This document shows, piece by piece, positions 57,701 to 63,700 of a DNA stretch of 64,000 nucleotides. The DNA comes from a plasmid. The stretch lies in sequence record NZ_CP110908.1; one strand, 5' to 3'. Positions within the stretch are counted from its first letter, which is position 1. Every line of letters starts with the position of its first letter. A program made the position numbers.

Positions 57701-60700
57701 GGCGTCTTACCCTGCTCAGACAACGTGCGAAACCCGCTGATTTGTTCTGCCGGATGCATCGCCGCCCTCTGGTTGTTCTCCACCATTGAGGCGACCACCG
57801 CCAGGTCGTCGCTGACGCGCTTGACGACAACGAGATACCCGGCATCGATGCGCTGTTCGCTGAGTAACAGTTGCAGGGCAGCAAGACGACGACCGCCCGC
57901 AGCAACGCCTGACAGGCCATCAGGCAGCGAGTGAACCACCAGATTCTGGATCAGGCCGACCGCGAGAATGGAGTCAGCCATTTCCCTGACACTCTCATCC
58001 GGGTACGGAATAATACGGACGTTCAGCGGGGATTTGACGAGCGCCGACAGCGGCACCATTTCAATCTGAGCGGCCTCAAGCGCCGCCTTAAGGGCTGCGG
58101 CTTCGGCAGGTTTAACCGTTTTTTTGCTGGTTTTCGCGGGGGTTTTTGCTTTAGACTCGGTTACTGACATAGTTGATACCTCACTGGATATTGATGACTG
58201 TCCGGCCCTGCGGAGTTAGCGCTCCGGCAGGGCACCTCTTACTGCTGTTTACGAATGCCGTAACGTTCGATGTAACGGTTAAGCCAGATCCCGGCATCCG
58301 CTTCAAAATTCCATGCCTGCCACACCATTTCGCCGTTCTGACGAACGACCAGGCGAAAATGCGAACCCTGATCGTCTTCGATGGCGACATTTTCAAACTG
58401 TGCCACCACTGCTTCCGCCTGTGCTCTGGTGAAGGTGTCATCTGGTAACGGTCCGGCGTTATAAATGCTCATATTTTCTCCTTTTACTGCCCCGCTGGTT
58501 GCGGGGCGTATTCATCATGCTGGTCAAAACGGGGCATCATCATCCATCGGTGGATAATCGTCCGGTAACGGCTGCGGCACCTGCTGAGACGGTGCGGCGC
58601 TCTGACGGCCTTTTCTGCCGCCCTTCGCTTTCGGGGATTTTTCAGGAGTGCCAGCTGGTTGTGACGGAGTGGCTGGCGTCTGCGGTTGTGCGGACTGCTG
58701 CTGCGGAGCCGTGCTCTGAGACTGACCGCCGTCACGACGACCACCCAGCATCTGCATAGTGCCGTTCTGTCCGACAACGATTTCAGTGACATAACGTGTC
58801 ACGCCGCTGTCGTCCTGCCAGTTTCGGGTGCGCAGTTGCCCCTCGACGTACACCTGAGCGCCTTTGCGCAGATACTCGCAGGCCACTTCCGCGAGCTTGC
58901 CAAACAGCACCACGCGATGCCATTCGGTGTTTTCGCGCATCTCTCCGGTCTGTTTATCGCACCAGGACTCCGAAGTGGCGAGGCTGAGGTTAGCGACCGC
59001 GCCGCCATTGGGCATGTAACGGACTTCTGGGTCCTGGCCCAGATTACCCACGATGATGACTTTGTTGATGCCGCGTACGGTCATGATGAATCTCCTTCCG
59101 TTTGTTTTGCTTTTAAAAACCATCACCCGTTGAGTTGCCGGGGCCGCGGTTTTGACGTTTTGCGGGGACCTGCTGAACACTCCCGCTGGTTATTACCTTC
59201 ACCCGTTTGAGAGCCGTTCGCCGCAAGGGCGTAAACGACCACGGCCCGGTGCAGGTGTCCGGGGTGAGCGGTCAATTTTTTACGGTCTAATGAAGCCTGC
59301 GGAATGGCCGGAAAAAATTTATCGCGAAAGGCTTCGCCGTCCCTGGACAGCCAGGCGGGTTGTGGTTGTCTCAGCCCCGGCGAAAGGACTCAAAAGGGTG
59401 AAAAAACCAGGCAAGGAATGAGCAGGCCCCCGCCGCAACGACGGAAAGCGCGGGCGCGAAACGGCGTTGCGCCTTACAGCCCGGCGGCAGTTTGCCGGGG
59501 TGCGAAAAGCGCAGGAAACGGCGCGCCAGGGGCGGCGTGACCGGAACGGTCGCAGCAAGCCTGCTTTTGACTTTCGCCATCAGACCCTAGCCGTATGGCC
59601 CGAAACCCGCAGGGATTCGGCGGAGACTGGCAGGTGCGCAGCAACTGCCCTGGCGGAGTGGGGCTCGACGACTGGACAGCGCCAGCTGGCCAGGAGCCGA
59701 AGGGGGCCAGTACCCTGATATTTCAGATTTCAAAAACACAGGGAAGCAGCAGCATGAAAAGGAACCGGAACAGGAACAGAAAACATCACCCTGTGAAACA
59801 GCAGAGAAAGCTCTCACCCGACAGACAGTCCAGCCAAAGAGACCATGAACAGACGCGGATGGAGGGCGGCGGCGCGAAGCGCGGCCCCCTTCAGCGCCGC
59901 AGGCGCGCGGCTTTTTCCGGCGCGGACAGACGGGGGCGTCCTCCCCCGCCCGGCTCACAGTGCCCGTCAGTTCTGAATTCTGAGAAGGACGGTTGATACA
60001 TCGGTATACGTGAATGTGCCACGCGGCAGCGGCTCCCAGACATCAGACAGGGGTTTCAGGATCTTCTGCTGGCGTGGCCCGTTCAGACAAACCGCCGTCA
60101 GTATTCCGCCTGATTCGAGCAGCGTTAAGGCGTGCTGTATGTGGCGGATATCCTGCGCATGCTGAAACGGCGGATTCATCAGGATTTTGTTCCAGAGGCT
60201 TCCCGGCTTGTATTCCAGAAAATCCCCGCACCGGACGTTAACGCCCGGAAACGCCGCTTGCAGATGTGCGGCTAACGCGGCGTTAAGCTCCACGGCGTCA
60301 CACCGTGCCAGCGGGGCCACCTCCCGGATGGCCCGTAAAATGGCCCCCGTTCCGGCCTCCGGCTCCAGAATACGATCAGAATCGTTAAGCTCTGCCAGGT
60401 CAGCCATCTGACGACAGACCGGATCGGGAGTGACGAAAAGCTGCGAGCTGGCCCGGATTTCGGCCACGGGGGTGCGTCCGTCAAGTCTGGCCCGCATCGC
60501 CTGAATACGGTCCCTGAGTTCACTATGCATATGAATGGCCCTTACCTCCCCGGCGTAATGCCGGGGAGTCTGTCGGTTATTTTTGCGGGATTTCCACGGT
60601 TTTCATGTCGGTGATGTACACATTATCGAGCGTGTAACCGCTGGTCATGATGCGGCGGAAGCGGTACGCGCCATGCTCATCATTTTCAGCGACACCCCGG

Positions 60701-63700
60701 ACCGACTTATAATCAGCCGGGGTTTTCGACCATTCGGCTTTTGTCATTTCGCGGAAACCCTCCCCCGGATAGTTAACGATCGGCGGGCGTTTCGCGGCCT
60801 GTTTTGCGGCGCGGGCTTCTTCCGCAGACGGGGCTTTATAGTCCGTGATACGGTCGGGGGTCAGTGTCATGGTCCCGTTGCAGCGCATAAAGCTGTAATA
60901 CGGGGTGACAACCGAACTGACCGCGCCGTTACTTTTATTGATGCGGATGATGGTCAGCCACTCGCCCCGGCTCTGAACCTGCCCGCCCGGCTCAAAATCC
61001 TGGGTACGGGTGACCACGCCGCCGCTTTCGTCCAGCATGGCGTGTTCATAGGCCAGGCGGTTCTGGTAATGATTCAGCCAGCGCTGCTGATGGCGGATCG
61101 TGCGTTCATGATATGGGGCGGCAATGTCGCGGGCCTGTTCAAAAGTAATAATCTCATTCTCAAGCGCCGAATGCAGGGACATCTGGCCTTCGTACTGGCT
61201 TTTCTCCGGCGGGCGCGGGTATTTTTCCAGCGTGAAACAGGTGTAAATATGATCGTAATTGCTGATAAGCCGCGCCATTTTCAGATCCAGCGTCTGCGCC
61301 CGCCACATCGTCAGATATTTCTGCGCCTGTGCAATATTCCGCTCCGCCTTGCGCTTGTCCGCCTCGATTTTTCTGATACGACGGTAACGCACATCCGGGC
61401 GTTCTTTGTATTTCGCCAGACGCAGGGAGGCATGCGCCCGATCCTCCCAGTATTCCGCACGTTCAAAGAGCATCACGGCGCGTTTCATACCGTTCTCAAT
61501 ACGCTGCGCATCCCGTCGCGCGCGGCGTTCGCTGTGATGGCCTACCAGGATCGGCTGTCCGAACGGGATAACCGACGCCAGCGCATCCACCTGCGCGAGC
61601 GTCTGCTCTGACTCCCCGGCGCGTTTTTCGCTGTAGCCGCTGAAACGGTCGGCGCGTTGCTCCTGACGGTCAAACAGGGTGTTGTCATCGTCTTCAATAT
61701 CTCCGGCAAGAGACAGAAGCACGTCCTCACGGGCTGGCGTCCAGGCTGGCGCGACAAACAGTTTCTGTTTCGGCGCCCAGCGAAAACCCACGGCGTGGAT
61801 CTTCTGATACGTTTCATCATCCAGACGCAGCGCGGCATACAGGCGCAATTTGTTGTCATCCGGGGAGTATGTCGCCCGGTACGACTGCACGGGGCTGTCT
61901 TCAGACGCGGGCGGCGGGGTGATGCTGGCAGTCAGTGCCAGTGCGGTAGTCTGTGTCATGTGAGTTTCTCCTTCCTGTGGTTGCCGCCCCTCGCGGGGCG
62001 GCTCACCTCATCAGTTAAATGCGCGTTTCAGTTCAAGCGTGCGGAGTACCTGCCCGTAGGCGGTATTTGTCATCGCGGGGATATGTACCCCGCGCCCCTT
62101 GCGGATACGTCTGGCGATGTGTCGCCCGAATGCCTTTAACGCGGGATTAATTTCTGATGCCGAAATATCGGCCCGAATGATGCGCGTATGACGGCGGGGC
62201 TTTACAGCCTCTGCGGAAGGTGAAACAATAGTTACTGTCACTTTAGTTAACTCCTTATGGTAGTTAATGAAGCCGTAAAAACCGTTACAGCGATTTTTAC
62301 GGCGTGGGAAAAGCAGGGTTTACCCTGCTTTTTTCATGTCTGCGGGTTGCTGCCCGTTCCTTCTGCCTCCTTCTGTACTTTGTCCGTAATGTCTTCGGGG
62401 TCGCCTAAAAACCAGCCGCTGACGGGTTGATAACGTTCGATAAATGCCCTGACAGCCCGCTTTCCGGTCACGGCGCGGATACGGGTAAACATCGGTATAA
62501 CGCCCTGTGCATCGCGTCCGCTGAACGCAATCTGATAAACACGCATCGCCTGAGCCTGCATTTTTCTTCCTCCTGGTTTTTAAAGAACATCACCCGTTGA
62601 GTTTCGGGAGCCGCGGTGTTGACGTTTGCGGGAACCTGCTGCGCTGCTCCCTCTGGTATTTAACTTCACCCGTTTGAGAACCTTCGCCGCAGGGGCGTAA
62701 ACGAGCACGGGCGATGGCAGCCGTCCTGGGCGCGGTTTACCGCGTGCCATTTACCCTGGACGGCTGACAGCGTTTGTGCTTGTCTCAGCCCGGGCGAAAG
62801 GGGCTTAAACGGTGAAAAGGCACCAGAAGTGGATGAGAGCAGGGGCCCGCCGCAACGTCGGGGCGCGGCACGCGAAACGGCGTTGCGCCTTACAGCCCGG
62901 CAGCCTTACCGCCGGGGTGCGAAAAGCGCAGGAAACGGCGCGCCAGGGGCGGCGTGACCGGAACGGTCGCAGCAAGCCTGCCGTTGACGTTGCGACAGCC
63001 TGGGATGGAAACCCGCTGCCCGAAGGGCCGGGCAGAGACAGCGTAGCTGGCTCAGTGCGAAGCATGACAGCCCCGGTTCCCGTCAGGGAAGTCGCCCGTC
63101 GTCAGCGAAATCCGTCAGGAAATATCGGCAGCAGGATGAAAGGAAACAGGAACAGGAACAGGAACAGGAACAGGAACAGGAACAGGCAACGTATTATCAC
63201 CGGCAGAAAAAAACCTCACACACTGGCCAGAAAAAACTATCACCCGGCATGAGAAAAATCCGGCCAGCGACAGGCAGAATGCTTCAGGACTGAAGCTACT
63301 TTTTAACCTCATCCTCTTTTCTGGCATATTCCGGGGCATTTTTGTCAGGCAGCTGCTCACTGAACTGACGGTAATAGTGCAACCGCCCCCAAAAATACGC
63401 TCTGAGATGTTCAGGCAGTTCTCTGACCACCAGTTCAGCGACCACCGGCATAGCCAGCCTTTCTTTATACGCCACGCCTGAAGCGACCAGGTCAATGGCC
63501 ACCTTATCCTGCTCTTCTTTCGATGTTGCGGCGAGATTAAATCCGGACATCATATACTCCGACAGAAAGGGAAACCGGCGGTAAGTGTACGCAATCTGAG
63601 TCAGGGGGGGAAAAGGACGGGGAGCGGCGCGAAGCGCGGCACGAGTCCTTCCTCCCGCAGGCGCCAGCCTGCATGGTTTTTCGCGCGGGCTGACAGGCGG

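Follow-up and report, generated by a model that had tools for sequence, protein, structure and literature searches.

Three repeated elements in the leading region of an F-like conjugative plasmid are predicted, with high confidence, to be single-stranded DNA (ssDNA) promoters of the Frpo/ssi type. They lie in a stretch of 64,000 nucleotides from plasmid sequence record NZ_CP110908.1. This whole stretch is called the window below, and positions refer to it unless another plasmid is named. The elements are referred to as copies A, B and C.

Copy A: 59100-59580, + strand, directly upstream of ssb.
Copy B: 62567-62995, + strand, directly upstream of an open reading frame (ORF) of 75 aa.
Copy C: 53576-54043, + strand, directly upstream of a 69-aa ORF.

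The original prediction, made from the sequence alone, had read such repeats as non-coding ssDNA promoters or ssi sites. This reading is supported by homology, by location and strand, by a long hairpin whose pairing covaries between plasmids, by an asymmetry between the strands and by the lack of a conserved reading frame, all of which can be observed in the sequences compared here. The core elements belong to a long-known family, and nothing about them is new in this window. They are already covered by Masai & Arai 1997, Couturier 2023, Samuel 2024 and Wen 2025.

Copies A and B are true repeats, far above what chance would produce. Their local alignment scores 355, while shuffled sequences score 20.5 +/- 2.4 (maximum 30). 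Aligning A (59105-59574) with B (62572-62991) yields 359 matching positions, 46 mismatches and 80 gap columns, an identity of 88.6% over aligned pairs or 74% with gaps counted. The main gap is a block of 54 nt that forms the hairpin tip in A and is absent from B. All three copies are GC-rich, as had been noted for A and B (0.60 in A, 0.63 in B and 0.59 in C, against 0.55 for the whole window), and the tail described as near-identical over 120 bp is 95.8% identical between 59455-59574 and 62871-62991. Placement immediately before leading-region genes also holds. Copy A lies about 15-30 nt from the ATG of ssb, copy B about 6 nt from the ATG (62561) of the 75-aa ORF, and copy C adjoins the ATG (53575) of the 69-aa ORF.

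Some outlines have changed. The third module, thought to be partial, is indeed a repeat (53906-54043 against 62963-63098, 90%), but it is the 3' part of the complete element C. The repeat of about 480 bp is real as well, but it is not a single unit; it combines a promoter hairpin of about 330 nt with a separate conserved tail. Finally, the span of 59100-63110 given for the repeats does contain them, but it also encloses a four-gene operon (59967-62561) that is no part of them.

Homology to known elements can be found for every copy in a comparison with Frpo/ssi regions, a check that the original prediction had suggested. The published Frpo/ssi sequences in Supplementary file 4 of Samuel et al. 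2024 were compared with the window by BLAST, and in the 64 kb they match only the A, B and C loci, always on the + strand. Copy A is 68.8% identical to F ssiD over 369 nt (E 2e-26), 72% identical to the F Frpo2 region over 491 nt (E 2e-68) and 88% identical to Frpo' 1 of S. marcescens over 363 nt. Copy B matches F ssiD twice (E 4e-23 and 6e-15), the F Frpo2 region (E 4e-52) and, at 85% over 389 nt, Frpo' 6 from an insect metagenome. By sequence, then, A and B are homologues of F ssiD/Frpo, which form class 1 of these promoters. Copy C is instead related to the candidates termed Frpo*: it is 86.2% identical to Frpo* 5 of S. enterica over 348 nt (E 7e-110) and 77.5% identical to Frpo* 7 over 386 nt, and its tip is 82% identical to Frpo1 of ColIb-P9. 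A scan of genome contigs with the 15-mer GCGAAACGGCGTTGC gave, among the matches listed, only chance ones in unrelated GC-rich genomes. A scan of the whole window at the Rfam gathering thresholds gave no match at the repeats. None is expected for an ssDNA element, since Rfam holds RNA families.

Each copy folds into a long imperfect hairpin when treated as ssDNA, a check that the original prediction had proposed. Folds were computed with DNA parameters, and z scores were taken from shuffled sequences. The main hairpins, with their minimum free energy (MFE), are as follows.

Copy A: 59134-59462 (329 nt), + strand, MFE -98 kcal/mol, z -5.6; an imperfect stem-loop with 117 pairs.
Copy B: 62601-62878 (278 nt), + strand, MFE -89.1 kcal/mol, z -5.8.
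Copy C: 53581-53821 (241 nt), + strand, MFE -67.3 kcal/mol, z -9.0, with 0 of 200 shuffles as stable.

The tips differ. Copy A ends in an A/T-rich palindrome at about 59280-59335, copy B lacks this extension and closes with the loop TTTA (62736-62739), and the tip loop of C is at 53692-53699. Wen 2025 defined such elements independently of homology, as windows of 300 nt with a folding energy below -75 kcal/mol. When a 300-nt fold is slid along 51.5-64 kb, exactly the A, B and C loci pass.

The strand on which the hairpin forms is also informative. In 24 of 24 elements the transferred (T) strand, which in the window is the + strand, folds 7-22 kcal/mol more stably than its complement. Over the whole 12 kb the mean fold is equal on both strands (-48.4 vs -48.4), so the asymmetry is not an effect of regional composition. 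G-T pairs are frequent among the conserved pairs of the T strand (for instance, alignment columns 13/30, 18/27 and 130/257). These would be C-A mismatches in mRNA, which argues against a function as leader RNA.

Comparison between plasmids shows that the pairing itself is conserved. The comparison loci were F, ColIb-P9 and the leading regions of ten other plasmids from Klebsiella, Citrobacter, Raoultella, Salmonella, Serratia, Enterobacter and Escherichia; homologues were taken from a plasmid collection and analysed with MAFFT, RNAalifold and pair counting. In 12 loci, including the window, there are 30 elements (26 near full length), and all are oriented like the leading genes, with none opposite. 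The layout of A and B, on the transferred strand just ahead of genes read from it, recurs in 11 other plasmids. According to the annotation tables, each full copy stands directly before a coding sequence (CDS) on the - strand. This CDS is ssb in nine cases, and otherwise a DUF905 gene, a small hypothetical gene or, once, a gene of 822 nt; in two cases the first gene, a homologue of the 75-aa ORF, is unannotated. An alignment of 23 class-1 copies (63-97% identity) gives a consensus hairpin of 69 pairs. Its cells are paired in 97.6% of cases, compared with 35-46% when partners are slid by 1-3 columns, and compensatory changes are seen at 14 pairs, compared with 1-7 in the slid controls. The observed values were reached by 0 of 500 shuffles. 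For the C type, 14 compensatory pairs occur among 6 homologues.

Some sequence blocks are conserved as well. The block AACCATCACCCGTTGAGTT (59118-59136 in copy A) is invariant or nearly so in alignment columns 1-19 of the 23 homologues. It belongs to an internal direct repeat, CACCCGTT(T)GAG, which is present on the 5' arm and flank of each class-1 copy, at 59118-59136 and 59198-59215 in A and at 62585-62603 and 62665-62682 in B. Across the homologues, the repeat copy near the ribosome-binding site (RBS) is conserved beyond the needs of pairing alone, and the block may matter in the 5' untranslated region (UTR) or at the start of transcription. A further conserved motif, CCCTGGAC, lies at 59341 in A and at 62754 in B.

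The position of the elements becomes clear from the map of the plasmid. This DNA is 100% identical to several Citrobacter freundii plasmids, such as NZ_CP110892, which shows this identity over both A and B. The plasmid is conjugative and F-like (MOBF/MPF_F), and the last 12 kb of the window form its leading region. A probable nick region of the origin of transfer (oriT) is read from the sequence as an inverted repeat, GCAAGATTAAATCTTGC, followed by GACGGGTGT/GGG, the slash marking the nick. It resembles that of F, whose nic sequence is GCAAAAACTTGTTTTTGC GTGGGGTGT/GG. Its orientation makes the + strand the T strand, entering the recipient 5' to 3' toward higher coordinates. Every leading gene lies on the - strand, so the T strand is their template. 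The features of the region, in order, are listed here.

Below 51.6 kb, - strand: tra genes (traM, then traJ-like, traY, traA, traL, traE, traK and traB).
51125-51508, - strand: traM, flanking the nick region (Pfam Tra_M, E 5e-36).
51822-51851, + strand: probable oriT nick region.
51977-52432, + strand: SLT transglycosylase gene, the other flank of the nick region.
52443-52973, - strand: ArdB-family antirestriction gene, 176 aa (Pfam Antirestrict).
53366-53575, - strand: 69-aa ORF, its ATG adjoining copy C; RBS GAGGA.
54028-54483, - strand: psiB-like gene (Pfam PsiB, E 2e-22).
54917-55645, - strand: psiA (Pfam PsiA).
55642-56073, - strand: psiB (Pfam PsiB, E 2e-48).
56119-58170, - strand: ParB-like gene.
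58239-58472, - strand: DUF905 gene (Pfam DUF905).
58524-59084, - strand: ssb (Pfam SSB, E 6e-39).
59085-59133, + strand: 5' flank of copy A, with the ssb RBS GGAGA on the - strand.
59967-60530, - strand: methyltransferase gene.
60577-61959, - strand: DUF3560 gene.
62011-62241, - strand: 76-aa ORF.
62334-62561, - strand: 75-aa ORF.

The closest known system is that of F, whose class-1 promoters Frpo1 (ssp1a) and Frpo2 (ssp1b) are described in Masai & Arai 1997 and Couturier et al. 2023. Copies A and B are their sequence homologues, and the hairpin of A spans 329 nt, against a published 328 nt in F. Strand and position relative to oriT are shared with the F elements, and the layout of traM, an oriT-like nick, SLT and leading genes is matched by the window. 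In F, Frpo2 precedes ssb-yfjA-yfjB-psiB-psiA; in the window, A precedes ssb, the DUF905 gene, the parB-like gene, psiB and psiA. The conserved tail is present in F too. There are also differences. F has two Frpo copies, which are 92% identical to each other, whereas the window has three elements, of which A and B share about 74-89%. Frpo1 precedes the last operon before oriT, a place that is held in the window by the diverged copy C. Copy B is unlike the F elements in that it lacks the A/T-rich tip extension and would drive a DUF3560/methyltransferase operon.

Other plasmids carry more distant counterparts. The elements ssi1-ssi3 of ColIb-P9/pESBL (IncI1; Bates 1999, Nasim 2004, Wen 2025) resemble those of the window in architecture and strand, and ssi3 precedes ssb. 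Their upper stem and tip are similar, but their lower stems cannot be aligned by BLAST, and the relaxase and mating system are different (MOBP/MPF_I). In effect, all three element types of the window are already catalogued among the Frpo' and Frpo* candidates of Samuel et al. 2024 (Nature 635:186). Those candidates are predictions, defined by BLAST and by eye, to which the elements described here add covariation and strand asymmetry.

Two further classes also form long hairpins on the T strand before leading-region operons (Wen 2025; bioRxiv 2026.01.09.698686). Class 2 (ssp2) is found upstream of ardB/klcA/ardA, and class 3 upstream of an M.EcoGIX-type methylase. The ssp2 region of F folds at -111 kcal/mol (z -6.6). 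Neither class was detected in the window, whose end at 64 kb falls short of the ardA/klcA part of the leading region. An assignment of copy C to class 2 was considered and rejected, as A, B and C show no BLAST similarity to the F ssp2 region and alignment with it gives scattered matches only.

Several experiments on related plasmids suggest what such elements do. According to summaries of Masai & Arai 1997, the ssDNA hairpin of Frpo rebuilds promoter boxes and recruits E. coli RNA polymerase, and its RNA can also prime DNA synthesis. An anti-CRISPR gene driven by Frpo2 protects a plasmid only if it sits on the T strand within the leading region (PMC11541004). The transcript starts of ssi1-3 in pESBL were mapped by 5' rapid amplification of cDNA ends (PMC12672017), and priming of the complementary strand was observed in vivo (bioRxiv 2026.01.09.698686). 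Recognition by RNA polymerase, stimulation by SSB, the dependence of downstream genes in vivo, their early and transient expression in transconjugants, priming and inactivation in double-stranded DNA (dsDNA) are thus taken from the literature on F and ColIb-P9/pESBL. By analogy with these plasmids, we infer that A, B and C are active here and that each drives the genes behind it.

The following model would account for their arrangement. The + strand would enter the recipient with its 5' end first, starting from the nick at about 51.85 kb, so that the elements arrive in the order C, A, B. Before the complementary strand is made, each would fold into its long imperfect hairpin and mimic duplex promoter DNA. 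Host RNA polymerase would start on the hairpin and transcribe the T strand toward lower coordinates, and the adjoining operon would be expressed. In this way C would drive the 69-aa ORF and, probably, the antirestriction gene of the ArdB family. From A, expression would cover ssb, the DUF905, ParB-like, psiB and psiA genes and the second psiB-like gene. From B, it would cover the two small ORFs (75 aa and 76 aa) and the genes for the DUF3560 protein and the methyltransferase. The same transcripts could prime synthesis of the complementary strand. Once the DNA is double-stranded, the hairpin would be lost and the promoter turned off, so expression would be a transient 'zygotic' burst.

Signals for transcription give a mixed picture. 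Between 53.3 and 64 kb no sigma-70 consensus promoter was found on the gene strand, which fits a dependence on the hairpins. Two -35-like hexamers are conserved in the 23 aligned copies: TTGACG on the 5' arm (59152 in A, 62619 in B) and TGGAC[A/T] on the 3' arm (as TGGAC[A/G] at 59343 in A and 62756 in B). The active Frpo2 fragment in the construct of Samuel et al. 2024 starts at GTCCCTGTCGCCGGGGC. This sequence is complementary to the 3' arm at a point some 50 nt inside the base of the hairpin, so activity in that construct requires neither the lower stem nor the tail.

Four observations weigh against reading the elements as ssDNA promoters. Linear scans of the 23 copies found no convincing -10 hexamer at 16-18 nt from the -35-like hexamers. 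The A/T-rich tip, which other authors describe as an UP element, is absent from copy B. The class of copy C, Frpo*, was rated as low-certainty by Samuel et al. 2024, and its -35 and -10 elements are considerably different. Lastly, the inverted repeats fold on the complement and as RNA too: in copy A the z score is -5.6 for the T strand, -3.2 for the complement and -3.5 for the RNA. For this reason, the case for the T strand rests on the consistent energy asymmetry and on the G-T pairs.

Alternately, the elements may be mainly ssi signals, which prime synthesis of the complementary strand or slow it as roadblocks rather than express genes. This is possible, though clearly less probable than a role as promoters. 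Frpo was first isolated as ssiD, a priming signal, according to summaries of Masai & Arai 1997. In vivo, early conversion that is sensitive to rifampicin adjoins the ssp1/Frpo promoters, and ssp2, another hairpin promoter, stalls complementary-strand synthesis (bioRxiv 2026.01.09.698686). The hairpins of the window, at -67 to -98 kcal/mol, are very stable. However, the two roles are not really exclusive, as one transcript serves both expression and priming. Gene expression is favoured as the selected function because 23 of 23 class-1 copies stand directly before a start codon, and because deletions of Frpo in F lose downstream expression. Roadblock activity, moreover, was reported for ssp2 and not for the Frpo type, and ssp3 was used as a promoter without it (bioRxiv 2026.01.09.698686).

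It is very unlikely that the repeats are ordinary regulatory regions of dsDNA in which the inverted repeats work at the mRNA level, by forming structured 5' leaders, attenuators or terminators. The folding of the complement and the RNA beyond shuffles would be explained by this, and the conserved block between hairpin base and RBS would fall in the 5' UTR. Nevertheless, the RNA has the sequence of the - strand, the less stable one in all 24 elements, and it would turn the conserved G-T pairs into mismatches. No sigma-70 promoter was found upstream on the gene strand, and the F promoter is inactive once its DNA is double-stranded (bioRxiv 2026.01.09.698686).

The repeats are not coding paralogues with conserved frames, and their long GC-rich ORFs, which had been suspected of being artefacts, are best seen as such. 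Of the 140 indel runs that separate copy A from the 22 other copies, 126 are not multiples of three, and the indels between A and B measure 1, 1, 1, 1, 54, 1, 2, 1 and 1 nt. Open frames of at least 50 codons can be found in several frames simultaneously and vary between copies, and no ORF is conserved across the 23 homologous copies. None of the seven ORFs inside the repeats matches a Pfam family. That the repeats are coding paralogues, or remnants of mobile elements similar to miniature inverted-repeat transposable elements, with no regulatory role, can hence be dismissed as extremely improbable: long frames are open over them on both strands, some public records annotate a 'hypothetical protein' or a mini 'SSB' CDS inside them, and hairpin and tail modules have been reassorted between copies, but most indels break the frame, open frames that vary in this way are expected at 60-69% GC, Pfam matches are absent, the copies are locked in orientation and always adjoin a start codon, and their pairing is kept by compensatory changes. 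A recombination hotspot, also proposed originally, is conceivable as a side effect of the reassortment of hairpin and tail modules, not as the main function.

Annotation near ssb illustrates the point. The gene starts at 59084, and a 218-aa ORF is its in-frame upstream extension to a GTG at 59180. In RefSeq, tiny CDSs named 'single-stranded DNA-binding protein' are annotated within the Frpo upstream of ssb in three comparison loci (L123, 9009-9122; L128, 3354-3560; L130, 14283-14396). These mini SSB CDSs and the 218-aa ORF look like annotation artefacts of a GC-rich hairpin that is poor in stop codons.

Frpo-type promoters explain how SSB, SOS inhibitors and anti-restriction or anti-defence factors are expressed within minutes of entry, before a double-stranded template exists. 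Recognizing these elements can be useful in several ways. It marks the starts of operons in leading regions, and it flags long GC-rich ORFs, including the mini 'SSB' CDSs of RefSeq, as artefacts. It also points to cargo genes that are likely to be early-expressed anti-defence factors. In the window, likely candidates behind B are the 75-aa ORF, the 76-aa ORF, the DUF3560 protein and the small methyltransferase; behind C, the candidate is the 69-aa ORF. Residual interest lies in the subtype of candidate C and in the conserved tail with its polypurine extension, for which no description beyond the 328-nt unit was found in the accessible Frpo/ssi literature. The parts of this extension are as follows.

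59455-59574, + strand: shared 120-nt tail of copy A, with the mini-hairpin GCGTGACCGGAACGGTCGC at 59535-59553.
59575-59735, + strand: tail-alpha module of copy A, composed of consecutive small hairpins rich in GC (fold z -2.2).
59740-59783, + strand: purine-rich microsatellite of copy A, in GGAACC/GGAACA units (period 6 in Tandem Repeats Finder, TRF); at least 80% purine over 40 nt.
59860-59960, + strand: GC-rich hairpin block that includes a T run (59894-59915) and separates the copy A cassette from the methyltransferase gene.
62871-63110, + strand: tail of copy B, made up of the shared part at 62871-62991 (mini-hairpin 62952-62970) and tail-beta at 62992-63110.
63117-63193, + strand: purine-rich tract of copy B, with (GGAACA)7 at 63145-63186 (TRF, 7.0 copies, 100% matches).
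53822-54043, + strand: tail of copy C, with the mini-hairpin GCATCCGTTTACGGATGC at 53896-53913 and tail-beta at 53906-54043 (fold z -3.6).

The mini-hairpin, GCG(TG/CA/CC)(A/T)CCGGAACGG..., can be aligned across A, B and C, and it covaries. Among 24 sequences, one pair is GC in 14, AU in 8 and CG in 2, and another is AU in 11, UA in 10 and GC in 1. Beyond it, module alpha follows A, and module beta follows B and C; in other plasmids these modules combine freely with the hairpin types. Over about 190-200 nt, tail alpha shares 79-80% identity with the sequence on the 3' side of ssi2 and ssi3 in ColIb-P9, where the lower stems of the hairpins can no longer be aligned with A; with the end of 'Frpo* 5' it shares 93%. 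The entries of Samuel et al. 2024 are windows of fixed length, about 400 nt, which cut through the tail. In 26 of 26 tails the T strand gives the more stable fold, the mean difference being 6.7 kcal/mol, but the z scores are modest (-2.2 to -3.6). The extension can be found in other plasmids, for instance in ColIb-P9 (L132) at 9300-9660 and 16333-16700 and in F (L001) at 3850-4300. On the T strand, each hairpin is followed by the tail with its mini-hairpin, one of the two modules, a polypurine microsatellite and a GC-rich hairpin with a T run, and the repeated unit may extend beyond the 328 nt published for Frpo.

Simple repeats of the GGAACA type had been reported after each of the two copies, and TRF finds them, as GAACAG x4 at 59756-59779 and AACAGG x7 at 63145-63186. 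Their unit is specific to the plasmid (GGAACA, GAGACA, GAAGAG and others), while the tract keeps its composition and place. Of 17 anchored copies, 14 reach a purine content of at least 78% over 40 nt, and the 99th percentile of the background is 72%. Citrobacter plasmids that are 99.8-100% identical align only up to position 622-629 of a 639-nt query, and the (GGAACA)7 array seems to vary in copy number among these near-identical plasmids. The GC-rich hairpin block has terminator-like matches on the + strand and is repeated at 53232-53253 (family D19); similar blocks are present in ColIb-P9 and F.

A function for this extension of about 300 nt is a matter of speculation. It might serve as an insulator that acts on ssDNA, although this is rather doubtful. 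The extension would then stop read-through transcription, or complementary-strand synthesis, that comes from the later-entering unit and would melt the promoter hairpin. If true, the insulator would prolong early expression. An insulator or roadblock role of the tail is conceivable by analogy with ssp2 (bioRxiv 2026.01.09.698686). A Rho/rut site made by the polypurine tract was also considered. The read-through RNA should then be rich in C and poor in G, and its C/G ratio in 78-nt windows was 1.38 for A and 2.08 for B, against a 99th percentile of 2.10. This explanation was not adopted.

A shortened relative of the C type is found upstream of the ArdB-family gene, at 52995-53125. In two related plasmids it forms a hairpin of about 145 nt (L122, 1250-1395; L124, 6411-6555) with z scores of -4.9 and -4.8 and an unpaired TTTATATA bubble. 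The version in the window is missing about 20 nt of one arm. A fourth active element at 52974-53135 was rejected, as its fold is no better than shuffles (z -0.5 and -0.9).

The 69-aa ORF starts with MNTQNVKVKTATKEST and the 176-aa antirestriction protein with MHTINVKTATRESAEQ. The 5' ends of the two genes share 71% DNA identity (repeat family D14), and judging from this, the 69-aa ORF may be a truncated duplicate of the N-terminus of the antirestriction gene. There are two psiB-type genes, a diverged one (54028-54483) downstream of psiA and the canonical psiB at 55642-56073.

Genes for a group II intron reverse transcriptase/maturase (ltrA) are annotated in two of the leading regions compared (L128, 4530-6197; L129, 15356-16843). 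The one in L128 sits between the ssb-proximal Frpo copy and the methyltransferase gene. Elsewhere in the window, Rfam gathering matches are the IS1222 ribosomal frameshift element (7541-7658, - strand, 156.6 bits) and the CopA antisense RNA of an IncFII-type replicon (16120-16207, + strand, 86.3 bits).

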